A DNA stretch of 60,348 nucleotides, filler included, from Candidatus Zhuqueibacterota bacterium (GTDB lineage: Bacteria > BS750m-G25): the NCBI GenBank assembly GCA_016783505.1. It is 5 parts of 5 records of this genome, joined end to end, with 100 filler letters (N's around TTAATTAATTAA, not from the genome) between each part and the next. Parts side by side here need not be neighbours in the genome. Positions count along the whole stretch, not along the records: positions 54,264 to 60,348 come from JADHWK010000084.1; 4 more parts are not named here. One strand, written 5' to 3'. Below are positions 8,176 to 60,348 of the stretch, piece by piece (the first letter of the stretch is position 1; each line of letters begins with the position of its first letter). The notes under the pieces are model-generated. The model saw nothing but the letters and a program-made list of their open reading frames with translations, was not told where the DNA came from and made no database searches. A program made the position numbers and the translations under genes.

Positions 8176-8275
8176 NNNNNNNNNNNNNNNNNNNNNNNNN
8201 NNNNNNNNNNNNNNNNNNNTTAATTAATTAANNNNNNNNNNNNNNNNNNNNNNNNNNNNNNNNNNNNNNNNNNNN
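8176..8275. other. Assembly gap with artificial TTAATTAATTAA linker
   Basis: N-run with a central linker that reads as stop codons in all six frames. Confidence 0.97.
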
Positions 8276-16347: not shown

Positions 16348-16447
16348 NNNNNNNNNNNNNNNNNNNNNNNNNNNNNNNNNNNNNNNNNNNNTTAATTAAT
16401 TAANNNNNNNNNNNNNNNNNNNNNNNNNNNNNNNNNNNNNNNNNNNN
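16348..16447. other. Assembly gap with artificial linker
   Basis: N-run with TTAATTAATTAA. Confidence 0.97.
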
Positions 16448-20034: not shown

Positions 20035-20347
20035 AAAACCGAAGCCGAGGATTCCACTGCCCAAGAAGCCTCCCAAGGTTGAACCCTTGAAGAAGGTTTA
20101 TTCACGAAAGAAAAAACATAAAAAAGAGGGCGAAGAGCTTCTTAATGAGGTGAAGGTGCCCGTCTTGTGTGCCAACAAGCCCAAGCCCGGACCCCCGGAG
20201 GGGACGGCTTACACCCTGACTATTTTAGTGGCCGATTCATACATGAAAGAAGCCCTGTCTCATCCCAATCCACAGGAGGCCGCGTGGGCGGTGGTTAAGT
20301 CGCTTAAGGACTGGTGGGAGCAGATAGGGTTATTAAGCAATCCGTAA
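20018..20347 (+). CDS. Hypothetical protein with Lys/Pro-rich N-terminus
   Basis: MPKVPKKPKPRIPLPKKPPK...RKKKHKK; overlaps the nth stop. Confidence 0.5.
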   Translation: MPKVPKKPKPRIPLPKKPPKVEPLKKVYSRKKKHKKEGEELLNEVKVPVLCANKPKPGPPEGTAYTLTILVADSYMKEALSHPNPQEAAWAVVKSLKDWWEQIGLLSNP

Positions 20348-20405
20348 CAGTTTACCACTAAGTTCTATTTCTGAATTCTTTGGCCTTTTTAAAAACCCCC
20401 ATTTG

Positions 20406-46505: not shown

Positions 46506-46605
46506 NNNNNNNNNNNNNNNNNNNNNNNNNNNNNNNNNNNNNNNNNNNNTTAATTAATTAANNNNNNNNNNNNNNNNNNNNNNNNNNNNNNNNNNNNNNN
46601 NNNNN
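46506..46605. other. Assembly gap with artificial linker
   Basis: N-run with TTAATTAATTAA. Confidence 0.97.
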
Positions 46606-51475: not shown

Positions 51476-53881
51476 ATGGCTCGAAGATCCTCGTCGCAAA
51501 AATCTTCCTCCCTTAACCTTTTTGGCGAACCCCAGGAGGGGGTGTCTTCCCCGTCCCAGACCCGCTTTTTGACCGAGGACGATTTAGAGATTAAGACAGA
51601 TCCTTATCGGGTTATTGAAAAACCCGCCAAGGAAATCATCGTCCCCATCGAACCCGTGCTATCTGATAACGCCCTCCGGGTGCTGGAACGGCGGTATCTC
51701 CGAAAGGATAAGGAAGGAAAGATCGCTGAATCCCCGGCTGAGATGTTCTCCCGGGTGGCCCGGCACATCGCTTCGGCAGATCTAAAATATGACCCCGATA
51801 CTGATGTCAGGAAAACGGAGATTCGTTTTTTCAACCTCATGGCCTCCCTGGATTTTCTCCCCAATTCCCCTACCCTGATGAATGCCGGTCGCGAGCTGGG
51901 TCAGCTCTCCGCTTGTTTCGTCCTCCCGATTGAAGATTCCATGGATCAAATTTTTGATACGGTAAAGAACACCGCCCTTATCCACAAGAGCGGTGGGGGA
52001 ACGGGATTTTCCTTCTCCCGCTTACGTCCCAAGAACTCAGTCGTTCGATCAACGGCGGGCACTGCTTCAGGTCCCGTTTCCTTTATGAGCGTGTTCAATT
52101 CCGCCACCGAGACCGTCAAGCAGGGGGGTACCCGTCGGGGGGCCAACATGGGTGTATTAAGGATGGACCATCCGGACATCCTGGAGTTTATCGGCTGCAA
52201 GCATAGCGAACGGGATCTTAACAATTTTAACATATCGGTAGCGGTGACCGACGAGTTCATGGAGGCAGTCAAGAGCGGCGGTACTTATTGGCTGTTTGAT
52301 CCCCACACCCAGAAACGGGTCAGCCGGATGATAGCCAGGGAGGTGTTCGATCAAATCGTGGAACAGGCATGGCAAAATGGGGAACCGGGGATCATCTTCC
52401 TGGATAAAGTCAACGCCCATAATCCCACCCCCAGTTTAGGCCTAATTGAGTCCACAAATCCCTGTGGCGAACAGCCACTCTTACCCTACGAATCCTGTAA
52501 CCTGGGCTCCATCAATCTATCCACGATGGTTTCCAATGGCAAATTAGATTGGGATAAGCTGGAGGAAACGGTTTGCACCGCTGTCCATTTTCTGGACAAC
52601 GTCATTGACCTTAACCAGTATCCCCTGCCCCAGATCCGGGAGATGACCTTTGGAAACCGCAAGATCGGCCTCGGGGTAATGGGATTTGCCGACATGTTGG
52701 TGCAGTTGGGCATCCATTATGATTCGGAGGAGGGGTTGAAGACCGCCGAGGGTGTGATGGAATTCATCCACGCCTGTGCGCGAAAGAAATCGGATGAATT
52801 GGCCCTGAAGCGGGGTCCATTCCCCAACTGCCCGGACAGCATCTTCACCACCCCCACCCGCAACGCTACCGTAACCACCATCGCCCCCACCGGCACCTTG
52901 TCCATGATCGCTGAAACCTCTGGGGGAATCGAGCCCCATTTCTCCTTAGTTTATATCAAAAAGGTCATGGATAATGAGGAACTGCTGTATGTGAACAGGG
53001 TTTTTGAAGAGGTGGCCCGAAAGGAGGGATTTTACAATCCTGAAATGATGAAAAGGGTGTCTGCCAGGGGCTCCCTGCAGAATATTGATGGGATTCCGGA
53101 CCGTGTCAAAGAAATTTTTCGCACCTCCCACGACATTACCCCGGAGTGGCACGTCCGTATGCAGGCCGCCTTCCAGAAATACACTGATAATGCCGTTTCC
53201 AAGACTATTAATTTCCCCCACTCCGCTACCAAGGATGATGTCCATCAGGCCTACCTTTTGGCCTATGAGCTGGGATGCAAGGGGTTGACCGTCTACCGGG
53301 ATGGCAGCAGGGAGGAACAGGTTCTGAACGTGGGCTCCCAGATAAAAGAGGGACGGCTGGCTAATGGGGAAAAACTCCATCCCCGCAATCGTCCCCCCAT
53401 AACCAGCGGAATAACCGAGAGAATTCGCACCGGTGAGGGTAATTTATACATTACGATCAATGAGGACGACTTTGGCCTCTGTGAGGTGTTCGCTTCCATC
53501 GGCAAGGCCGGGGGCAACGCCGCCGCCCAATCGGAGGCCATCAGCCGACTTATCTCGTTGGCCATGCGCTCGGGTATCAACACCAACGAAATTATCGAAG
53601 AGCTGAAGGGCATCTCCGGCCCCAATCCGGTGTGGGACTTGGGCGAGCTTATACTTTCCGCCCCCGATGCCATCGGAAAAGCCCTGGAACGGTATCTGAC
53701 CCGGATGGAGCGGATGAATGAATTGGATAAGGAAGATCAAGGTGAGAGAAAGACCAGCTTTATCGAGGAGAACTTAGAAGTCATCCCCCGGGGTGACGTC
53801 TGCCCCAAGTGCAACGGCCACATGGATATGATCGAGGGCTGTGCCACCTGTCGTTCCTGCGGTTTTTCTAAGTGTGGTTAG
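51476..53881 (+). CDS. nrdJ: Class II (B12-dependent) ribonucleotide reductase with C-terminal TSCPD/Zn-ribbon
   Basis: PNSPTLMNAG, LSACF, TNPCGEQPL, CNLGS, TIAPTGT, CPKC...CRSCGFSKC. Confidence 0.93.
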   Translation: MARRSSSQKSSSLNLFGEPQEGVSSPSQTRFLTEDDLEIKTDPYRVIEKPAKEIIVPIEPVLSDNALRVLERRYLRKDKEGKIAESPAEMFSRVARHIASADLKYDPDTDVRKTEIRFFNLMASLDFLPNSPTLMNAGRELGQLSACFVLPIEDSMDQIFDTVKNTALIHKSGGGTGFSFSRLRPKNSVVRSTAGTASGPVSFMSVFNSATETVKQGGTRRGANMGVLRMDHPDILEFIGCKHSERDLNNFNISVAVTDEFMEAVKSGGTYWLFDPHTQKRVSRMIAREVFDQIVEQAWQNGEPGIIFLDKVNAHNPTPSLGLIESTNPCGEQPLLPYESCNLGSINLSTMVSNGKLDWDKLEETVCTAVHFLDNVIDLNQYPLPQIREMTFGNRKIGLGVMGFADMLVQLGIHYDSEEGLKTAEGVMEFIHACARKKSDELALKRGPFPNCPDSIFTTPTRNATVTTIAPTGTLSMIAETSGGIEPHFSLVYIKKVMDNEELLYVNRVFEEVARKEGFYNPEMMKRVSARGSLQNIDGIPDRVKEIFRTSHDITPEWHVRMQAAFQKYTDNAVSKTINFPHSATKDDVHQAYLLAYELGCKGLTVYRDGSREEQVLNVGSQIKEGRLANGEKLHPRNRPPITSGITERIRTGEGNLYITINEDDFGLCEVFASIGKAGGNAAAQSEAISRLISLAMRSGINTNEIIEELKGISGPNPVWDLGELILSAPDAIGKALERYLTRMERMNELDKEDQGERKTSFIEENLEVIPRGDVCPKCNGHMDMIEGCATCRSCGFSKCG

Positions 53882-54163: not shown

Positions 54164-54263
54164 NNNNNNNNNNNNNNNNNNNNNNNNNNNNNNNNNNNNN
54201 NNNNNNNTTAATTAATTAANNNNNNNNNNNNNNNNNNNNNNNNNNNNNNNNNNNNNNNNNNNN
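54164..54263. other. Assembly gap with artificial linker
   Basis: N-run with TTAATTAATTAA. Confidence 0.97.
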
Positions 54264-54303
54264 CGCAGGATATAGCCCGTCCATCTTCATGCCTTTGTTA
54301 TGT
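54264..54303 (-). other. attC site, partial (cut by contig edge)
   Basis: R'' ACATAAC (54303-54297), 8 nt after the stop, followed by the start of an arm. Confidence 0.7.
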
Positions 54304-54311
54304 CATATGTT

Positions 54312-54788
54312 TCACAGTGTTGATTGGATCCTTGCTATTCTTTCTTCCAAATCAGCAATAAATTCGTCCGGTATCCTATCTTTTGCTAATTCATTAAAAT
54401 GCCGGGCTTCTTCAAACATTGTCTCATAACTGAGTTCTAAAGATTTCAACACATCCGTCCAAAATCTTTTACGTACGTCAGGTGGGTTACATGGACCATC
54501 CGCATCATTTTTGAATCGATCAGGTGCTATAACTAACAAGTCTTCATATGGAATCCCAAGTTTTTCCGCTTGATCCTTTAACAATTCCCGCCCTTCCCAA
54601 TTATCAAACCAGTGTTCACCATAGTCATTGTCCAGCGTGAACAGTCTCCCGATCCAGACCACAGGGTTCCATTCAATCAACCCAAGAATTTCAGAGATGC
54701 GTCGGTATTCATTTGTAACAAGAAAAGCATCAAGTTGATCAATATACTTGAACACTTTGACGGTTTTCATGCTAATTATCTGCCTCAT
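54312..54788 (-). CDS. Cassette-borne hypothetical protein
   Basis: 158 aa, Trp/acidic-rich (EWNPVVWIGR, DNDYGEHWFDNW); starts about 10 nt after R'. Confidence 0.8.
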   Translation of the reverse strand: MRQIISMKTVKVFKYIDQLDAFLVTNEYRRISEILGLIEWNPVVWIGRLFTLDNDYGEHWFDNWEGRELLKDQAEKLGIPYEDLLVIAPDRFKNDADGPCNPPDVRKRFWTDVLKSLELSYETMFEEARHFNELAKDRIPDEFIADLEERIARIQSTL

Positions 54789-54797
54789 CTGAGTTGG

Positions 54798-54859
54798 ACA
54801 TAACGTCTCTTTTCAGCGGGCGCGCTTTTTTGCGTTCCGCTGCAAAAGCATTGTTAGCC
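54798..54859 (-). other. attC site (62 bp)
   Basis: GGCTAAC-AATGC-TTTTGCAGCGG...CCGCTGAAAA-GAGAC-GTTATGT. Confidence 0.92.
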
Positions 54860-54862
54860 ATT

Positions 54863-55519
54863 TTAATATTGTGTAAAAGTCTCAACCCCACTACAAAATT
54901 GATATCTCATAAAATCACTAAACCCGGTCCATAAAAAATGCTGTGATGTATAGGCGCACTGGAAAATAGATGTTTTCTTTGCAAGTATGGCTGGGTTTAG
55001 AAAGGTGGACTCAATATGTTTGCCAACCTCTTTCTTCCGAGGATTTTGAACACCAGGGCATAGAAAATGCCAAATATTAAGACCATCCTTGCTTTTATTC
55101 TTAAAATAATCTCCTAAGATTTTGTGATTGATATGACCATATTCTCCATCAATGTTATGTGTAAAAATAATGTCAAAATTGTCAATACTGACTTTATTCA
55201 ATTTTTGAGTTACCTCAGAAATATTTATGTGGTTTTCATTTTGTGTGTCTACCATAATATTGATAAATTCATATTCTAACTTCAGATTATCTGATTGGAT
55301 CTTATATTCATAAACAGCTTTTTGTAGCTCAATTCCTCGGTCATCATTTTCTTTGTGAGTCGAAATGAATATCTTCCAATTCCAATCGCTTCTTGAGAGT
55401 ATGGTTCCCCCCATCCAGATAGTTTCATCATCAGGATGTGCCGAGAAAATCGCAGCTTTTATTGGCTTTATGTCACTACTTGGTATCAGGAAATTATGTT
55501 CTTCGTTATATTTCATCAT
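54863..55519 (-). CDS. PIG-L/LmbE family deacetylase (cassette)
   Basis: AHPDDE metal motif; THNIDGEYGHINH; YTSQ. Confidence 0.85.
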   Translation of the reverse strand: MMKYNEEHNFLIPSSDIKPIKAAIFSAHPDDETIWMGGTILSRSDWNWKIFISTHKENDDRGIELQKAVYEYKIQSDNLKLEYEFINIMVDTQNENHINISEVTQKLNKVSIDNFDIIFTHNIDGEYGHINHKILGDYFKNKSKDGLNIWHFLCPGVQNPRKKEVGKHIESTFLNPAILAKKTSIFQCAYTSQHFLWTGFSDFMRYQFCSGVETFTQY

Positions 55520-55559
55520 AGATTTTACCGATTATATCGCACAGTTTCTCGTTGCGGAT

Positions 55560-55631
55560 GGCTAACGACAGGATCACTTGCGGCTATGGAGCAACAGCGG
55601 AATAGCCGTCAAGTGCATCCATTGGTTGGGC
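55560..55631 (-). other. attC site (72 bp)
   Basis: GCCCAAC...GGATGCACTTGACGGCTAT...ATAGCCGCAAGTGATCC...GTTAGCC. Confidence 0.92.
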
Positions 55632-55653
55632 GAATTAAGTATTGTCCCCAGAA
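55632..55653. repeat. 22-bp inverted repeat, left copy
   Basis: gaattaagtattgtccccagaa; reverse complement matches 57807-57828 at 21/22 positions. Confidence 0.9.
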
Positions 55654-55755
55654 TTTAGGGATTGGATCATTTTCGGGAATCGCCTCCTGGAGAAAGACCT
55701 TCAGGGAATTCCAATTGCAACTGCTCGGGTCGGTGACAAGTTATCAATCATAACC

Positions 55756-56349
55756 TCATTTTTTAATAAACTCAACCAGTTCTGTATCCGTAGATATTTC
55801 CTTGATCATAGCCACGAGGGCCTGATTCAGCGAGCTCTTCCATCCTGCTAATCCACCGCCCGTAGTATATGCTCCTTCGTATGACTTCATAAAAACACCT
55901 TTTTCTGTGGGTATACAGCTAATCATTATTTTCACACCAGTATGAGCAGTTTGGTTAGTAGAAAAAAGGCGTTGCTGAACTCTATATGTAAAATCGTAGA
56001 TACTTCCTTCAACGATGAAATCTGCCTTAACATCCGACGAAATATTGACAAATTTGTGACCGTTTCTTTCCAATTCTTTTCTTATCTGATTGGCTACAAA
56101 CGTTGTTATCGGTTGATCTAATACCAATGTATGCGCACCCACTTGTGCCACTAAAGCTGGATCGTCAACATTTCTGACACGCTTAAATTCTTTGAAAGCA
56201 AAGGTTTTGGAAGGCACGCCACGCAATGGGCTACCCGTCTGCAATGTAGAGAAATCACTGGTTTTCAGAATATGGGTACATCCCGTAACTAATAAGATTG
56301 CGACCATTAATGATACGATACTATGTGGGTAACTGCTGCGACCTTTCAT
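55756..56349 (-). CDS. Lipoprotein (YajG-like, tentative), cassette gene
   Basis: Lipobox VTGC; RBS GGAGGTG. Confidence 0.75.
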   Translation of the reverse strand: MKGRSSYPHSIVSLMVAILLVTGCTHILKTSDFSTLQTGSPLRGVPSKTFAFKEFKRVRNVDDPALVAQVGAHTLVLDQPITTFVANQIRKELERNGHKFVNISSDVKADFIVEGSIYDFTYRVQQRLFSTNQTAHTGVKIMISCIPTEKGVFMKSYEGAYTTGGGLAGWKSSLNQALVAMIKEISTDTELVEFIKK

Positions 56350-56360
56350 TTTTCACCTCC

Positions 56361-57128
56361 TTACTTAAGATATACGAAATCATAAGCCAGGTTTTGCCCG
56401 GCCTTCTCTATGATCGCGTCGAGCTCTTTCAATCCGTTTTCTTTATAATAGTTAAGTGTATGTACTTCAGGAGATGACAGAACTTCCTCTCGGTCCCATA
56501 CTATTTTCCCTGAGCGCAGGTACGTCAATTGACCCTGCACGTGGATCTGGAGGCCAAAATTATCACCAGCAAGGTGAGTAAGGGAAATATTTTTGATGAC
56601 CAACCGGATTACGGCATTATAACCTGCGTCCGATAATTGGTGGTCGTCATTAATCTTGTTCTTTATATAGTCAACACGATCAAAGCACGAAGCCTTTCTG
56701 ATGGGTGTGGTAAAAGCTTGAACAATTTTATCTTCAATGCTGCTTATATCGATTTTGGTTCCTATTTCTTTAGCAGATGCACTGTCTGTGTGCGCCCTTT
56801 CTGCGGCAGTCCCAATAGCAACATAAGGCAATATAAGAAGAGGTGCGAGTACTGCAATCGCAAGACCTAGACCGGCTGCGCCCGTACCTTCCTGCGTGGC
56901 AGGAGTTACATCCAGGGCGTTGGCTGAAGCAAGAATTGCCACTTTTTTGATGCTCGAAAGGCTGTTGCTCGTCAGGTAAGTTTCTTTTGGAGGAGCCGAT
57001 GCGCAGGAAACAAGGAGCAATGCCATGCAGATACATAGACATCGGCGCAATCGCATTTTCATCAAGGCATTCATCCTGGGAACACGGGTTGAATCGTTAG
57101 CTTTAACTATAAACCAGATGAGCCTCAT
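56361..57128 (-). CDS. Lipoprotein with glycine-zipper-like segment, cassette gene
   Basis: Lipobox LVSC; GTGAAGLGLAIAV. True start may be downstream (MKMRLRR). Confidence 0.75.
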   Translation of the reverse strand: MRLIWFIVKANDSTRVPRMNALMKMRLRRCLCICMALLLVSCASAPPKETYLTSNSLSSIKKVAILASANALDVTPATQEGTGAAGLGLAIAVLAPLLILPYVAIGTAAERAHTDSASAKEIGTKIDISSIEDKIVQAFTTPIRKASCFDRVDYIKNKINDDHQLSDAGYNAVIRLVIKNISLTHLAGDNFGLQIHVQGQLTYLRSGKIVWDREEVLSSPEVHTLNYYKENGLKELDAIIEKAGQNLAYDFVYLK

Positions 57129-57190
57129 CTTTTTATCTCCCTTCTTTTATGTGATCCTTCCTCAATAGTTCAGATGCAGACTCCTCTGCA

Positions 57191-57730
57191 TTACTTGGCA
57201 CGTAAGTTTTGTGCTTGTTGATTGAGTTCATCGAGGAAGGCTTCAGTACGTGGAACTCCTTGGGGTTTGTTTTTATCAAGCATCACCGGTAATATTAGTA
57301 ATTTGCTTTTCCCTTTGATGAACCAACCATCGACATCACTGAATATAATAAAATCGCTATTACCAATAGGATAGGATGCCGGGTTGCCATTATGGCGCGC
57401 GACAGAAACAGAATCAAATATGCGTCGTTTGGCTATAGCATCTACATTGAATTGATAAGCATTTCGACTAACAGCGGTGAAGAAATCGATTTGTTCTTGG
57501 CTAACTCTGGTCCCGCTAAAAGCTTTGATCAAACGTTTCTGTATTTCAACGTCCGATGGGATAATAATCAGGGCTGCACCTCCCACAGGATTTTGATTAG
57601 GCTTTATCTCTTTGATAATGTTAGAATATATTTCTGTATTCTTTTGAAGTAGTTCGGAATGATTCAAACCGCAGGCAATTAAAAACATGAATGTTATAAC
57701 TATAAAAGTAACCAGAGTTAATCTTCTCAT
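57191..57730 (-). CDS. Hypothetical lipoprotein, cassette gene
   Basis: MRR + hydrophobic stretch + LIAC; RBS GGAGG. Confidence 0.78.
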   Translation of the reverse strand: MRRLTLVTFIVITFMFLIACGLNHSELLQKNTEIYSNIIKEIKPNQNPVGGAALIIIPSDVEIQKRLIKAFSGTRVSQEQIDFFTAVSRNAYQFNVDAIAKRRIFDSVSVARHNGNPASYPIGNSDFIIFSDVDGWFIKGKSKLLILPVMLDKNKPQGVPRTEAFLDELNQQAQNLRAK

Positions 57731-57806
57731 GGAGTCCCCTCCCTACTTTATGTTATCTCCTGTCGGGCTGGATGCCTATCAGCGGTTGGCCCCATAATAA
57801 GAATAG

Positions 57807-57828
57807 TTCTGGGGACAATACTCAATTC
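57807..57828. repeat. 22-bp inverted repeat, right copy
   Basis: ttctggggacaatactcaattc. Confidence 0.9.
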
Positions 57829-57842
57829 AACCATTTCTTTCG

Positions 57843-57933
57843 GCCCAACGACCTAAATCAGCGGCGGGGCTACGACATTTGCTGAAAATCGCACCGCGGC
57901 TTATTCCCCGTCCGCTGGATTTGCTTGTTAGGC
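57843..57933 (-). other. attC site (91 bp)
   Basis: GCCTAAC-AAGC-AAATCCAGCGGACGGGG...CCCCGCCGCTGATTT-AGGTC-GTTGGGC. Confidence 0.92.
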
Positions 57934-57956
57934 ATTTAATACTGTTCATTTGTCAA

Positions 57957-58003
57957 ATGTTAAGACTTGACACCAATCTCTTCTCATGTCAAGACCTGAC
58001 ACC
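57957..58003. repeat. 18-bp direct repeat pair next to attC
   Basis: atgttaagacttgacacc (57957-57974) and atgtcaagacctgacacc (57986-58003). Confidence 0.8.
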
Positions 58004-58056
58004 TTTTCCACCTTTATTGGTTATGCTTCCTGATTCATTCTTGTCTTGACAAAAAC

Positions 58057-58683
58057 TTACTTACTCGCGCTTAGAATCTGGTCATTCATTTTTTCCAAGG
58101 CATACACCAAGCTACCCCTGACTGATTCGATAAGTTCAAATTTCCCGGCGCTTCCGGCTTGGAAACCTCCCATAGCACCGCCGCCGCCACCACGATAACC
58201 GATCTCTTTAGAATATTGCCCAACAGATGATCCCTCCGTTAATACGGACCAATTCTTATCATATAATTTATAGACTAATTCTGTTGTGCTTGACCATTCT
58301 TTTACCGCAAGGGGGAAAATTTTTGTCGTCCTCAACTCAATGTCAGTCTTCTGACCAAATTCAATTGTAATGATTCTGTCAATATCTTGAGGTGCTTTGT
58401 TTTTATCTATAAAAAGAGAAACAGATGAAAAGACTTTTCCCAAAGATGCAACAGCTTCCGATTCAATAGCTTCACCTAGCAAAGCTTTATTAATACCTAC
58501 TCCCACAGGCATCATATAAGCCTTCGTTTTATCGCTGAGGTAGAGGCCTGCTTTAAGAGGTATTATTTCTGATCTGCCCGTATACGAAGCTAAGTCGCGC
58601 TTAATGACGTATCTTTCTCCCTGACAGCTCATTAAAAAAGTTAAAATCATTAACACTAATAAACCGATATTTTTTAGTTTCAT
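58057..58683 (-). CDS. Hypothetical lipoprotein, cassette gene
   Basis: MKLK + hydrophobic stretch + LMSC; RBS GAGGAGG. Confidence 0.78.
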   Translation of the reverse strand: MKLKNIGLLVLMILTFLMSCQGERYVIKRDLASYTGRSEIIPLKAGLYLSDKTKAYMMPVGVGINKALLGEAIESEAVASLGKVFSSVSLFIDKNKAPQDIDRIITIEFGQKTDIELRTTKIFPLAVKEWSSTTELVYKLYDKNWSVLTEGSSVGQYSKEIGYRGGGGGAMGGFQAGSAGKFELIESVRGSLVYALEKMNDQILSASK

Positions 58684-58741
58684 CGTCGCGTCCTCCTCAC
58701 CTTATTATTTCAAAGTAATTATGCAAAAATTAATCTTGCGG

Positions 58742-58804
58742 GCCTAACGCATAAGGTCAGCGGCGGGCAGCTTTTTGCCCGTCCGCTGTAGTGAGTTGTT
58801 AGGC
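58742..58804 (-). other. attC site (63 bp)
   Basis: GCCTAAC...CAGCGGACGGGCA-AAAAGC-TGCCCGCCGCTG...GTTAGGC. Confidence 0.92.
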
Positions 58805-58865
58805 AAAATAAATCTGTCCCCTTTTACGTTTTATAGATACAAGTCACAAAGAACAAATGATCGAT

Positions 58866-59516
58866 TTATTTTGACAAAACAGAAACATAATCATGCATAA
58901 AGTCATTCATCATTTCTGTTGCTAGGTTGTTACAGGCAATTTTGAGCATGACTTCATGAATTTGCTCCTGTGGAATTACACTCTTATCCTTCTCCTCACT
59001 CATTATAGTATGTTTTTTCTCCCAAATACTCTTTGAAGTTCTTGCATCAACGATTTTCAAATTTGCTGATGCAATAGCATAACCTTCCCAATTAGTATTG
59101 GCAAAACCTAGTGCTATGGGTGAGGTTACAATAAAGGCAGTAAAATAGGCTATAGCTATATTCCTATCACCTGCATTTGAACCAGCTACAAACTTGTCTA
59201 TTTCACCAGTGATAATATAATCAATACTTTCCTGTACTGATGAGTCGATATCTTCATTCACTGAACGATTATAAATAACCTGAAATCCCTTAGATCCTTC
59301 TAAGCATTCTTTAACCGTCTGCTTGAAACATTCCCCGCCTTGGTTCTTGAATCCTTTTATTAATACATTTTTTACTTTTGTAAATCCGCTCAGATATTTC
59401 CGTTCCGTTAATTTCGTCGTTGGTTGAAAATTCGTGGAACAACCATATAAAGAAATCAGGATTAAAATTATGAACAACCTTAAGTTTCTCAAATACTTAT
59501 AATTATTCACATTCAT
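58866..59516 (-). CDS. Lipoprotein (CsgG/LpoB/DUF799-like fold, tentative), cassette gene
   Basis: Lipobox LYGC; DYIITGEI...LKIVDARTSKSIW. Confidence 0.72.
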   Translation of the reverse strand: MNVNNYKYLRNLRLFIILILISLYGCSTNFQPTTKLTERKYLSGFTKVKNVLIKGFKNQGGECFKQTVKECLEGSKGFQVIYNRSVNEDIDSSVQESIDYIITGEIDKFVAGSNAGDRNIAIAYFTAFIVTSPIALGFANTNWEGYAIASANLKIVDARTSKSIWEKKHTIMSEEKDKSVIPQEQIHEVMLKIACNNLATEMMNDFMHDYVSVLSK

Positions 59517-59541
59517 ATATCCACCAGTTGTTAATCCTATA

Positions 59542-60195
59542 TTATTGTGCCTTCTCTATCTTTCCACCAGTCGAAATACGTTTCATAAATGAAGCTTGAC
59601 CTTCCGCAATCAGATTTAGAAAGTTTATTAGAAAATCTTTACTATCGCCACCGAATCCGCCCATAAATCCGACACGTCTATCAGATGATTTATAAAGGAT
59701 CTTTTTTGTTTCTGGTGCTCGGATATCTATTTCAACTTGAGCCTTTGCTGCTCCTGCACCAAAACCGACAAAATATCTTAATGCTCTATTACCAGGTTCT
59801 AATTCTGAAAGAGATGACTCCAAAACAAGGGTTTTTCCAGTCTGCTTATTAGGGTCTGAAATAGCAGCGGTGTCATCAGTAACTTTAGTAAATAATCCGG
59901 TATTATTCATATTTTTGATTAATTGCTTTATAAAATAAATATTTAGCTCTTCAAGATCAATATCAGTTTTTGGTATATTTGGCGAAATAGGTAAGCCAGA
60001 TATGATTAAAGTTTCATACCCTTTAAAATCAAAACCTGGGGATAAATATACCATCCCAGCATCTTTATCTTCTATCATCTGAAAATCTTTATGAGAAATA
60101 TTTTCTACGGGAGTCATTCTATGAGCACCACAACCAATAAGTGACAACAACAATAAAGCTAAAACAATCTTTTTCATTTTCATTCTCCTTTTCAT
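59542..60195 (-). CDS. DUF4410/DUF3313-like lipoprotein, cassette gene
   Basis: Lipobox LIGC; PGNRALRYFVGFGAGAA. Start may be 60183 or 60177. Confidence 0.8.
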   Translation of the reverse strand: MKRRMKMKKIVLALLLLSLIGCGAHRMTPVENISHKDFQMIEDKDAGMVYLSPGFDFKGYETLIISGLPISPNIPKTDIDLEELNIYFIKQLIKNMNNTGLFTKVTDDTAAISDPNKQTGKTLVLESSLSELEPGNRALRYFVGFGAGAAKAQVEIDIRAPETKKILYKSSDRRVGFMGGFGGDSKDFLINFLNLIAEGQASFMKRISTGGKIEKAQ

Positions 60196-60205
60196 TTTTA
60201 TTAGG

Positions 60206-60333
60206 GCCTAACGGGCAGCGAGATGAGCCGCCGTCGGTTGGGGGCGGAAATTGCATGCTAATGCAATTTTCCGTGCCAACCGACCGAGCGGAGCGAAGCC
60301 CGGAGGGGGTCGGCTCGATTGAGTTTGATAGGC
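60206..60333 (-). other. attC site (128 bp) with non-canonical R''
   Basis: GCCTATC...GAGCCG...GTCGGTTGG...CCAACCGAC-GGCGGCTC...GTTAGGC. Confidence 0.75.
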
Positions 60334-60348
60334 GGAGCGCCTTTGGCG

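Follow-up and report, generated by a model that had tools for sequence, protein, structure and literature searches.

The window analysed here is a stretch of 60,348 nt in which several contigs of a metagenome-assembled genome (MAG; GCA_016783505.1, 2.5 Mb, 60% complete) are joined by N spacers. The contig at 54,264-60,348 (JADHWK010000084.1) is 6085 nt long, holds cassettes only and is co-oriented, with 8/8 ORFs on the minus strand. It includes an integron cassette of three lipoprotein genes with a terminal inverted repeat near each end, laid out as follows:

57841..57935, minus strand: attC of the upstream cassette, found with a custom covariance model; the crossover in its R' box GTTGGGC (57849-57843) starts the three-gene cassette
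55566..57848, minus strand: the whole three-gene integron cassette, 2283 bp, running from TTGGGC after the R' crossover to the G of the R' of its own attC
57829..57842, minus strand: 14 nt left over from the 3' end of an ORF for a Y1 transposase, recognised in an alignment (A6) with loci L019, L017 and L036
57807..57828, minus strand: right terminal inverted repeat (IR_R), inner side facing R', outer side facing ORF1
57191..57730, minus strand: ORF1, 179-aa lipoprotein, lipobox LIAC, no family match
56361..57128, minus strand: ORF2, lipoprotein with lipobox LVSC, start probably at 57062 or 57074, without a family match
55756..56349, minus strand: ORF3, 197-aa lipoprotein, Lipoprotein_16 (PF03923, 34.3 bits)
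55632..55653, minus strand: left terminal inverted repeat (IR_L), inner side abutting R'', outer side facing ORF3
55558..55633, minus strand: the cassette's own attC, with R'' GCCCAAC (55631-55625) and R' GTTAGCC (55566-55560), from covariance model and fold

Lipoboxes were identified by inspection in all three ORFs (LIAC, LVSC and VTGC), and upstream of ORF1 no promoter-like site reached 9/12. The plus strand reads GTTGGGC at 55625-55631 and GCCCAAC at 57843-57849; on the minus strand these are therefore the R'' box GCCCAAC and the R' box GTTGGGC, which are exactly complementary and are partners in the circular cassette. The inverse core sites of attC (RYYYAAC and GTTRRRY), which pair with each other, are present at the 3' end of the cassette. 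A covariance model of attC, built here from 4-12 local sites in two versions (R1 and R2) and run with filters off over 54265-60348, gave matches at 54796-54861, 55558-55633, 57841-57935 and 58740-58806 (27-76 bits, all on the minus strand), along with a weak additional match at 60204-60335. The upstream attC scored 87.1 bits with R1 and 75.8 bits with R2 (13 bits on the plus strand); the cassette's own attC scored 70.9 bits with R1, whose training set includes it, and 60.8 bits with R2, and sites outside the training set scored 27-37 bits. Inside the cassette the best score was only 6.7 bits (E 3.8), within ORF2; an earlier note on this DNA had taken 55566-57848 to be one three-gene cassette with no internal attC, and that description holds.

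At least three of the four sites that folded cleanly displayed an extra T on the 3' arm of the plus strand, and a fifth, at the contig end, gave no clean attC fold. The bottom strand was assigned from the position of these bulged bases, on the arm that faces the plus-strand AAC triplet; extra-helical bases on that arm mark the attC bottom strand in the portion of Nivina et al. 2016 (PMC5027507) available to us. The loop motif of the cassette's own attC is common to other attCs of the same genome. Other tools were less useful: attC finders based on regular expressions and on energy gave either no matches or 105, mostly false, and were dropped, while MAFFT alignments A1-A3 (6-8 attCs) were misaligned and only the 4-sequence alignment A4 was retained.

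A public contig (JACKQG010013313.1, 7089 nt) is a longer version of the array and is identical to it over 6000 nt. Contigs with zero differences span 54775-58782 in two runs of two studies, and in a third run one contig spans 54776-60239; the source sample may be among these runs. Neither intI nor attI was found beside the array on the 6085-nt contig or its 7089-nt public version, the MAG being 60% complete; the sole integron-type integrase found in the MAG lies on another contig (C44) and is an internally deleted relic, which matches TIGR02249 at positions 1-55 and 262-304 only. Rfam, searched at gathering thresholds, gave no matches in the window.

The same cassette recurs behind other attCs at two further loci, L016 (90.2%, 2188 nt) and L018 (91.6%, 1207 nt). 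Counting the window, three MAGs with different phylum labels have the identical 5' boundary, each time preceded by a different attC. Near position 57850 identity rises abruptly, from 0.3-0.4 to 1.0, and the break falls at R' in the window, L016 and L018 alike. The locus is, with high confidence, a real, horizontally moving three-gene integron cassette that carries both terminal inverted repeats of a TIRtron, a transposon described below, inside-out relative to its genes. In its co-orientation, its R'' and R' boxes, the extra-helical bases of its bottom strand and the different attCs upstream, it resembles the integron cassettes covered by the accessible text of Nivina et al. 2016 (PMC5027507), and it departs from them in its three genes and 2283 bp, in the TIRtron ends at both of its ends and in the lack of an integrase on the contig.

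The two arms of the repeat match at 21/22 positions, IR_L directly abutting R'' and IR_R lying 14 nt from R'; these positions, and the exact complementarity of R'' and R', had been reported in the earlier note and were verified by direct reading. With up to three mismatches the motif occurs twice in the window versus 0.01 occurrences expected (0/100 shuffles reached two) and twice only in the whole 2.5-Mb genome, and the inverted repeat, extendable to 27 nt at 89%, is the best on the contig. It is absent from the 22 other attCs of this genome. In motif searches at family, class and phylum level, where the window's own genome is the only one in the collection searched, that genome alone matched, and viral contigs yielded 0 matches. 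The 3' UTRs of the two neighbouring cassettes bear a weak likeness to other TIR left ends (p 0.01-0.02 before correction for 30 comparisons) and were not counted.

The kind of element to which the repeat belongs was recognised from a metagenome contig, L019, which holds a complete unit: IR_L, 36 nt, a gene for a 220-aa Y1_Tnp protein, and IR_R overlapping the stop codon. Its transposase matches PF01797 (Y1_Tnp) at 48.6 bits and the NCBIfam model REP_Tyr_transpos (NF047646) at 75.4 bits, where the cut-off is 80; the TTCTGG tips of its repeats point outward and the AATTC ends point towards the gene. At four more loci the motif adjoins 5' or 3' relics of the L019-type gene, with tails of 130-180 nt in L017 and L036. 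A scan of 596 Gb for the exact motif returned three loci, about 0.3 being estimated by chance, and all three (3/3) have further homology; matches in G008, within a permease gene, and in G014 look like chance. The TIRs are 22-24 nt long, with the 24-nt variant GGGGACAC in L019, L036 and genome G012 and GGGGACAA in the window, and by inspection the motif has no GTAG tag and no internal palindrome and is not self-complementary. The family is moderately repeated, with lone copies, nine of them in genome G002 and seven in G012.

The earlier note had likened the motif to the ends of IS200-like or RAYT Y1 transposase genes. The link to a Y1 transposase stands, given the inverted motif on both sides of the L019 gene, although the element is a TIRtron and neither a classical REP/RAYT nor an IS200 element. 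In the available text of Di Nocera, De Gregorio & Rocco 2013 (PMC3733652), a TIRtron is a gene for a RAYT-like Y1/HUH transposase (TIRYT) flanked by TIRs, and TIRYTs largely correspond to the TnpA-Y1 subclass 2.1 of Quentin et al. 2018 (PMC6006769, available text); GGGGWSAS is the TIR consensus in the corresponding portions of both. L019 shares with these, as there described, a Y1/HUH gene between long TIRs, a right TIR that overlaps the 3' end of the gene, and GGGGWSAS at 8/8 positions of GGGGACAC; the window's GGGGACAA agrees at 7/8. No HTH domain is detectable by Pfam in the L019 protein, in contrast to the subclass 2.1 TIRYTs, all of which have an HTH in the available text of PMC6006769. 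The window itself is a relic or derivative of a TIRtron and not a member, because only the last 14 nt of the gene are present. Its genome has three Y1 genes (on C89, C32 and C80), flanked by REP-like hairpins unrelated to the motif, and no close homologue of the L019 transposase (best identity 30%; MAG 60% complete); none of the three resembles the cognate transposase envisaged in the earlier note.

Comparison with L019 and its relatives allowed each end in the window to be oriented. The 14-nt spacer between IR_R and R' is the tail of the transposase ORF, its TGA stop codon (57829-57827) running into IR_R, and IR_R itself is identical to those of L019 and L017. The repeats carry an end-specific base at position 17: it is C in the window's IR_R and in 4/4 right ends defined by a transposase tail, and T in the window's IR_L and in 3/3 left ends defined by a transposase leader. 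IR_L aligns locally to the L019 gene leader with a score of 39, where 300 shuffles reach at most 24. The transposase-facing sides of both repeats are turned towards attC, as had been predicted, and attC therefore occupies the place of the transposase gene in the circular cassette. In linear form the cassette starts with TTGGGC, then come the final 14 nt of the transposase ORF and IR_R, and at its other end IR_L is fused to R''. Excision as a circle would bring these parts together as a 130-nt succession of IR_L, attC (72 nt), transposase tail and IR_R.

Because both ends are present in one cassette, excision would rebuild the transposon shell around attC, and the circle would very probably hold a 130-nt TIRtron that lacks its transposase and has attC in place of the gene. 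In such a circle the repeats would lengthen the attC hairpin (the predicted fold energy of the cassette's own attC is -40.8 kcal/mol with the extra stem versus -22.6 kcal/mol). Present movement would depend on the integron integrase only, the repeats presumably being inert without their transposase. A circular joint was sought in the contigs of four sequencing runs and none was found, which is not evidence against circles.

A tie between motif and attC, as supposed in the earlier note, also appears in other genomes. In G002 and G012 four cassettes with unrelated upstream genes end in a common module, IR_L followed by 52 nt and an attC, and homology between the modules starts exactly at the outer end of IR_L; the copies are related to each other and hence represent few independent events. 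IR_L abuts an R''-like heptamer at three more loci, which make two independent junctions, and lone left and right ends each adjoin attCs in G002 and G012. In L017 an attC is followed by the transposase tail and IR_R, a weak second case of the window's right-hand arrangement, with a degenerate R' and 17 bits under a model not trained on it. In all, at least three genomes, from two distant lineages, have this TIR family fused to attC, always in the same orientation.

To our knowledge, the question of how a gene acquires an attC, and with it how integron cassettes are born, is unsolved. The explanation that we favour for this cassette, at a probability of roughly 0.4, is that it originated from a TIR-bounded element which carried attC and seeded cassettes. 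An attC would first have become joined to TIR ends, making a TIR-bounded carrier of attC that was not autonomous; with a Y1 transposase working in trans, copies of the carrier would then have come to lie beside ordinary genes; and integrase recombination between two such attCs flanking the lipoprotein operon could have released the cassette with one carrier reconstituted. The general mechanism that this implies, in which a TIRYT provided in trans moves a transposase-less TIRtron miniature with attC as single-stranded DNA, attC sites are thereby set next to ordinary genes or operons, and the integrase lifts adjoining genes as cassettes, is put forward tentatively and leaves ample room for doubt. 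The arrangement hints that Y1-type elements may bring recombination sites to new genes.

Several observations favour an origin from such a carrier. The homology of the modules ends at the tip of the TIR, which is what transposition leaves; a lone left end cannot transpose, and a two-ended attC element split by an integrase crossover would leave lone ends. The complete unit in L019, the homology of the spacer to the transposase tail, the agreement of the end-specific bases, the mobility of the cassette, the IR_L/R''-like junctions and the second succession of attC, tail and IR_R in L017 point the same way. The reading is weakened in that the loci inspected around motif matches included no free-standing IR_L-attC-IR_R unit, the form expected in the earlier note, and by the 22 repeat-free attCs, the lack of a close transposase homologue in the genome and the missing circle joint. 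An attC of the module family without IR_L (G002:C182), which is not an outgroup, fits repeated gain or loss equally. Also counting against it are ascertainment bias (it was the presence of both ends that drew notice to the cassette, and G002 has lone ends near attCs), the derivation of the attC model from 4-12 local sites, and the fact that in Di Nocera et al. 2013 (PMC3733652), as far as its available text extends, biochemical assays of TIRYT activity are only proposed.

Alternatively, the repeats may be two separate transposon scars with no role in making the cassette, TIRtrons landing preferentially at the feet of attC hairpins, where single-stranded hairpin DNA would suit Y1 enzymes; we regard this as possible, at appreciably less than even odds. 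One TIRtron would have landed 5' of the cassette's R'' and degenerated until a lone left end remained; another, just 3' of the upstream R', would have been shortened to its last 14 nt, probably when the integrase recombined the attC with a GTT in the transposase tail. Both kinds of lone end do occur singly beside attCs in G002 and G012, and the module-family attC that lacks IR_L and the manner in which the cassette drew attention are again in favour. R' GTTGGGC aligns at 5/7 positions with GCGGGGC in the transposase of L036, so that a GTT inside the gene may have served for the crossover, and in L016 a different, resident TIR element is inserted 16 nt from the position of the window's IR_L, showing that such elements do enter the cassette. 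(L016 was also considered as an ancestral intermediate and rejected, its 3' end being a repeat with at least six copies resident in that genome.) Scars would nonetheless require two insertions of a family otherwise absent from the genome, plus two truncations exactly at attC boundaries, and the integrase cuts R' and not R'', which leaves the IR_L/R'' junction unexplained. A lone end cannot insert itself, yet the junction of IR_L, 52 nt and attC is identical in four cassettes with homology from the TIR tip. Finally, R'' GCCCAAC pairs without mismatch with the cassette's own TTGGGC, although the R'' boxes found elsewhere on the contig and on its longer public counterpart read GCCTAAC (three times), GGCTAAC and ACATAAC.

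Integron integrases recombine at GTT secondary sites, which counts for a further, improbable explanation: that the operon lay beside a complete TIRtron, on a chromosome or on circular DNA, and that the integrase recombined an attC of the array with a fortuitous GTTGGGC in the transposase tail and so drew the operon downstream of it into the array, the 3' attC and left repeat being joined by a later deletion. In L019, L017 and L036 genes of the same orientation do follow immediately downstream of the unit or relic, as they do in the window, and the R' box overlaps transposase-derived sequence. When worked out on paper, however, the products of a single crossover leave attC between IR_R and ORF1, or IR_L downstream of attC, neither of which matches the window, and a second TIR copy downstream and an unexplained precise fusion of IR_L to R'' would be needed as well.

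The 22-bp repeat encloses 2.15 kb of genes that include no transposase, as would the ends of a transposase-less cargo transposon (a MITE or mobile insertion cassette) inserted with the three genes between two attCs, but this is contradicted by polarity, the window's tips facing inward to the genes where those of L019 point outward, and by the transposase tail, which lies outside the bracket on the attC side; no target-site duplication was found either, and the idea is very hard to sustain. Chance similarity or an assembly artefact, in favour of which nothing speaks but the shortness of the contig, is contradicted by the shuffles, by the matching contigs of three runs and the identical public contig, and by recurrence of the motif in other genomes with conserved flanks, and has a negligible chance of being correct.

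Carrier-borne attCs would differ from the known associations of mobile elements with attC. IS1111-attC insertion sequences and group IIC-attC introns home to attC, which they interrupt or follow, and encode a DEDD transposase or a reverse transcriptase of their own. The present family is like them in recurring at one position and in one orientation with respect to attC and differs in that the ends of a Y1 transposon enclose an intact attC. IS200/IS605 elements have subterminal hairpins and no TIRs and insert 3' of a short target. They and REP/RAYT systems belong with L019 in one enzyme superfamily (PF01797) and use single-stranded DNA substrates; the L019 ends are plain inverted repeats, in contrast to IS200/IS605, and the window repeat forms no GTAG-tagged palindromic hairpin of the REPtron kind, consistent with the NF047646 score below cut-off. 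A literature search for a link between Y1/TIRYT elements and attC found none: in the available text of PMC3733652 and PMC6006769 the word 'integron' occurs 0 times, and 'attC' occurs 0 times in one and as a sequence string only in the other, and the available text of PMC7923331 has only an IS200/IS605 element beside a cassette cluster.

If cassettes do arise from TIR-bounded attC carriers, this would be a mechanism for de novo cassette formation that extends to ready-made operons and multi-gene cassettes, and HUH transposons would for the first time be linked functionally to integrons. If the repeats are scars, TIRtrons would join IS1111-attC and the group IIC-attC introns as a third kind of mobile element that prefers attC.

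The three genes, which the earlier note had suggested seeking without attC or repeat, were not found outside cassettes. ORF2 was not found in 400 other Omnitrophota genomes (among 401, only G003 matched) or in any of the 401 genomes of the phylum of G002. Its relatives form 69 clusters in 5.8 billion proteins; relatives P0003-P0007 have 77-87% identity, the exact protein is encoded on a 14-kb contig, and more distant relatives (45-50%) are encoded on contigs of 57-350 kb.

The window is made up of MAG contigs and is not a single molecule, so whatever lies across its joins has no physical linkage to the cassette array; one example is the gene at 51476-53881, which resembles a class II ribonucleotide reductase. 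The cassette contig, G000:C39 (6085 nt; window 54265-60348), holds solely co-oriented minus-strand ORFs with attC-like hairpins between them, and is identical over 6000 nt to a longer public version, JACKQG010013313.1 (7089 nt). attCs were located with covariance models, R1, built from four local sites (alignment A4), and R2, in which R1 was widened with untrained matches; the R2 sites below were obtained with filters off.

8176-8275, N-run join with TTAATTAATTAA spacer
16348-16447, N-run join with TTAATTAATTAA spacer
46506-46605, N-run join with TTAATTAATTAA spacer
54164-54263, N-run join with TTAATTAATTAA spacer
54796-54861, minus strand, attC
55558-55633, minus strand, attC
57841-57935, minus strand, attC
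58740-58806, minus strand, attC
60204-60335, minus strand, weak attC

All sites scored much higher on the minus strand, and in the plus-strand folds the arm opposite the AAC triplet carries the extra base; since this base marks the attC bottom strand, as described by Nivina et al. 2016 (PMC5027507), the minus strand is the top strand, as the earlier note had assumed. No attC was detected inside the cassette (best internal score 6.7 bits, R2, filters off), and with the positions of the flanking sites this defines 55566-57848 as a single 2283-bp cassette of three lipoprotein genes; the note had proposed just this, and all its coordinates were correct on direct reading. ORF3 matches Lipoprotein_16, and ORF1 and ORF2 have no family match. 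The 22-nt motif, with up to 3 mismatches, occurs twice in the window versus 0.01 expected, and these are the only occurrences in the 2.5-Mb genome.

Three consecutive cassettes here (58057-60195 and 55756-57730; three-gene, one-gene and two-gene) hold six lipoprotein genes, with lipoboxes recognised by inspection; the two-gene cassette has a DUF4410 match (37.8 bits) and a weak GNA1162-like one (17.4 bits, below cut-off), and outer-envelope lipoproteins seem over-represented in the array. Elsewhere in this MAG, at least 22 attC matches are scattered over many contigs, and G000:C44:2911-3190 (1305-1632 of locus L003) carries an integron-integrase relic, 5.6 kb from an attC on the same contig, that matches only positions 1-55 and 262-304 of TIGR02249, the middle of the gene being deleted.

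The cassette is real and mobile. Four sequencing runs, drawn from four studies and some possibly of the source sample, contain the same array without differences and show no circle joints. The exact motif was sought across 596 Gb, with one genome for each species and about 0.3 chance matches estimated; three MAGs contain it, their labels being Proteobacteria, Desulfobacteria and Omnitrophota. In two of these, at loci L016 (90.2% DNA identity) and L018 (91.6%), the same three-gene cassette follows an attC and an upstream cassette that differ from case to case, and precisely at R' identity to the window jumps from 0.3-0.4 to 1.0. Its first ~60 nt (R', spacer and right repeat) are 97-100% identical versus ~90% elsewhere, which is only a hint of constraint, because the ORF2 signal-peptide stretch (two overlapping windows) is equally conserved. 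In L018 (1-135; Omnitrophota MAG), ORF2 stops matching after residue 161 and unrelated sequence follows, which points to insertion or deletion, or else to a chimeric contig.

L016 departs from the window 16 nt before the left repeat (IR_L) and continues into a different Y1 gene, within which the contig ends; a paralogue at G001:C416 combines Y1_Tnp with a sub-threshold DnaA_C helix-turn-helix. Because the divergent sequence is a resident repeat, present at least six times in that MAG, we read L016 as a probable later insertion by a resident element, and not as the ancestral state. The repeat forms a second TIR family (core ATAGGGGACGTATTAAACAATTAAACTTGA), mostly without transposase, with at least six copies in this 'Proteobacteria' MAG (L016 3034-3077; G001 C184, C281, C484, C148 and C263), one of them inside the three-gene cassette, 16 nt from the window's IR_L position.

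The cassette repeats are TIRtron ends. A link of the motif to Y1 transposases, raised in the earlier note, was borne out on a metagenome contig (L019), where a 220-aa gene (P0001; PF01797 Y1_Tnp, 48.6 bits; NCBIfam REP_Tyr_transpos, 75.4 bits, below the cut-off of 80) has the motif 36 nt upstream and an inverted copy overlapping its stop codon. The motif also stands beside relics of the transposase gene, namely 3' tails (130 nt and 180 nt; L017 and L036) and 5' leaders (L061 and L082). "TIRtrons" are described as RAYT-like genes with flanking terminal inverted repeats, their enzymes as "TIRYT", and their TIRs as sharing GGGGWSAS (Di Nocera et al. 2013, PMC3733652; confirmed in PMC6006769); the 24-nt repeat variant fits this motif at 8 of 8 positions and the window copies at 7 of 8. 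Comparable inverted repeats flank most related Y1 genes in G001-G003, clearly in six of nine examined. A REP hairpin and an IS200/IS605 end were both ruled out as the repeat's identity. G000 holds no close relative of the L019-type transposase (best 30% identity), and its own three Y1 genes have REP-like hairpins unrelated to the cassette repeat, clustered on both sides of each gene in the classical REPtron manner:

C89:1050-1250 and 1690-1890, hairpin clusters
C32:19800-19880 and 20330-20400, hairpin clusters
C80:1960-2100 and 2680-2790, hairpin clusters

In the window, the 14-nt spacer between R' and the right repeat (IR_R), together with GGGC of R', is homologous to the 3'-terminal codons of the transposase ORF (alignment A6), with a relic of its TGA stop at 57829-57827. 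Repeat base 17 is end-specific, being C in 4/4 right ends defined by the transposase tail and T in 3/3 left ends defined by the leader; in the window it is C in the copy beside the tail and T in the copy at R''. The side of each repeat that faces the transposase gene is thus turned towards the attC, the orientation that had been predicted, and its tip towards the three genes. Circularisation of the cassette would place IR_L, attC, tail and IR_R in that order within a 130-nt unit, whose predicted fold is -40.8 kcal/mol versus -22.6 for the attC alone. Neither repeat occurs on any of G000's 22 other attCs.

This TIR family has repeatedly been fused to attCs, in one orientation. The 24-nt form is found 9 times in G002 and 7 times in G012, two members of one small class, and is absent from G000, G001 and G003. 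Four cassettes with unrelated upstream genes (G002:C60, G002:C54, G002:C231 and G012:C45) share a module of IR_L, 52 nt and attC, headed by the left repeat, and their homology starts at the outer tip of IR_L; the attCs, where scored, reach 28.7, 21.1 and 12.3 bits, and the G012 copy is internally deleted. IR_L also abuts an R''-like CCCTAAC at three more loci, representing two independent junctions, with no attC detectable behind it, and at L017 an attC whose R' is degenerate is followed by 20 nt, then by a transposase tail of 23 nt and by IR_R. Given the attCs detected by the models (at least 16 in G002 and at least 8 in G012), chance adjacency is unlikely, but the module copies are related and reflect few independent events. 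In G002:C182 (L094) an attC of the module family lacks IR_L, and this copy is not an outgroup of the others; compared with C60, C54 and C231, its R''-L'' arm differs and the rest is ~93% identical, a mosaic which suggests recombination inside attC sites.

We tentatively favour an origin, with a probability of roughly 0.4, from a carrier, that is, a TIR-bounded, transposase-less attC unit moved by TIRYT in trans. A homology boundary at the TIR tip is the hallmark of transposition, and a lone end is unable to move on its own; an integrase crossover would split a two-ended element with an internal attC into exactly the lone left and right ends observed, and a single recombination between two flanking carrier copies would produce the window's cassette. 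The chief rival, itself quite possible, is that independent TIRtrons inserted at the feet of attCs and were trimmed by deletion or by integrase at GTT in the transposase tail; the L016 insertion and the C182 attC lacking IR_L speak for it, as do the free-standing unit never having been seen and ascertainment bias, the cassette having been noticed because both ends are present. It is improbable that, by secondary-site capture, the integrase recombined an array attC with a fortuitous GTTGGGC in a transposase tail, drawing in the downstream operon, as the product topology does not fit. A transposon carrying the genes as cargo is excluded by the repeat polarity, and chance, the least credible of all, is contradicted.

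TIRtron or RAYT ends enclosing or heading attCs were not reported in the literature searched; the nearest report found describes an IS200/IS605 element next to a cluster of cassettes (PMC7923331).

The two upstream cassettes have 3' UTRs (57934-58056 and 58805-58865) with direct repeats of the form GGTGTCA(A/G)GTCTT... and with AAAAGGGGACAG directly adjoining R''; their likeness to left ends of other TIRtron families was not significant (p 0.01-0.02, uncorrected), and they were rejected as such. Left ends are nearly always preceded by AA. At two loci, four tandem 24-nt TIR copies lie within ~180 nt, after stuttering partial copies (AATTCTGG...), and may have arisen by insertions nested within one another or because the element prefers its own tip as a target:

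G012:C321:5046-5221 (L072), tandem 24-nt TIR copies
G002:C3:7959 (L081), tandem 24-nt TIR copies
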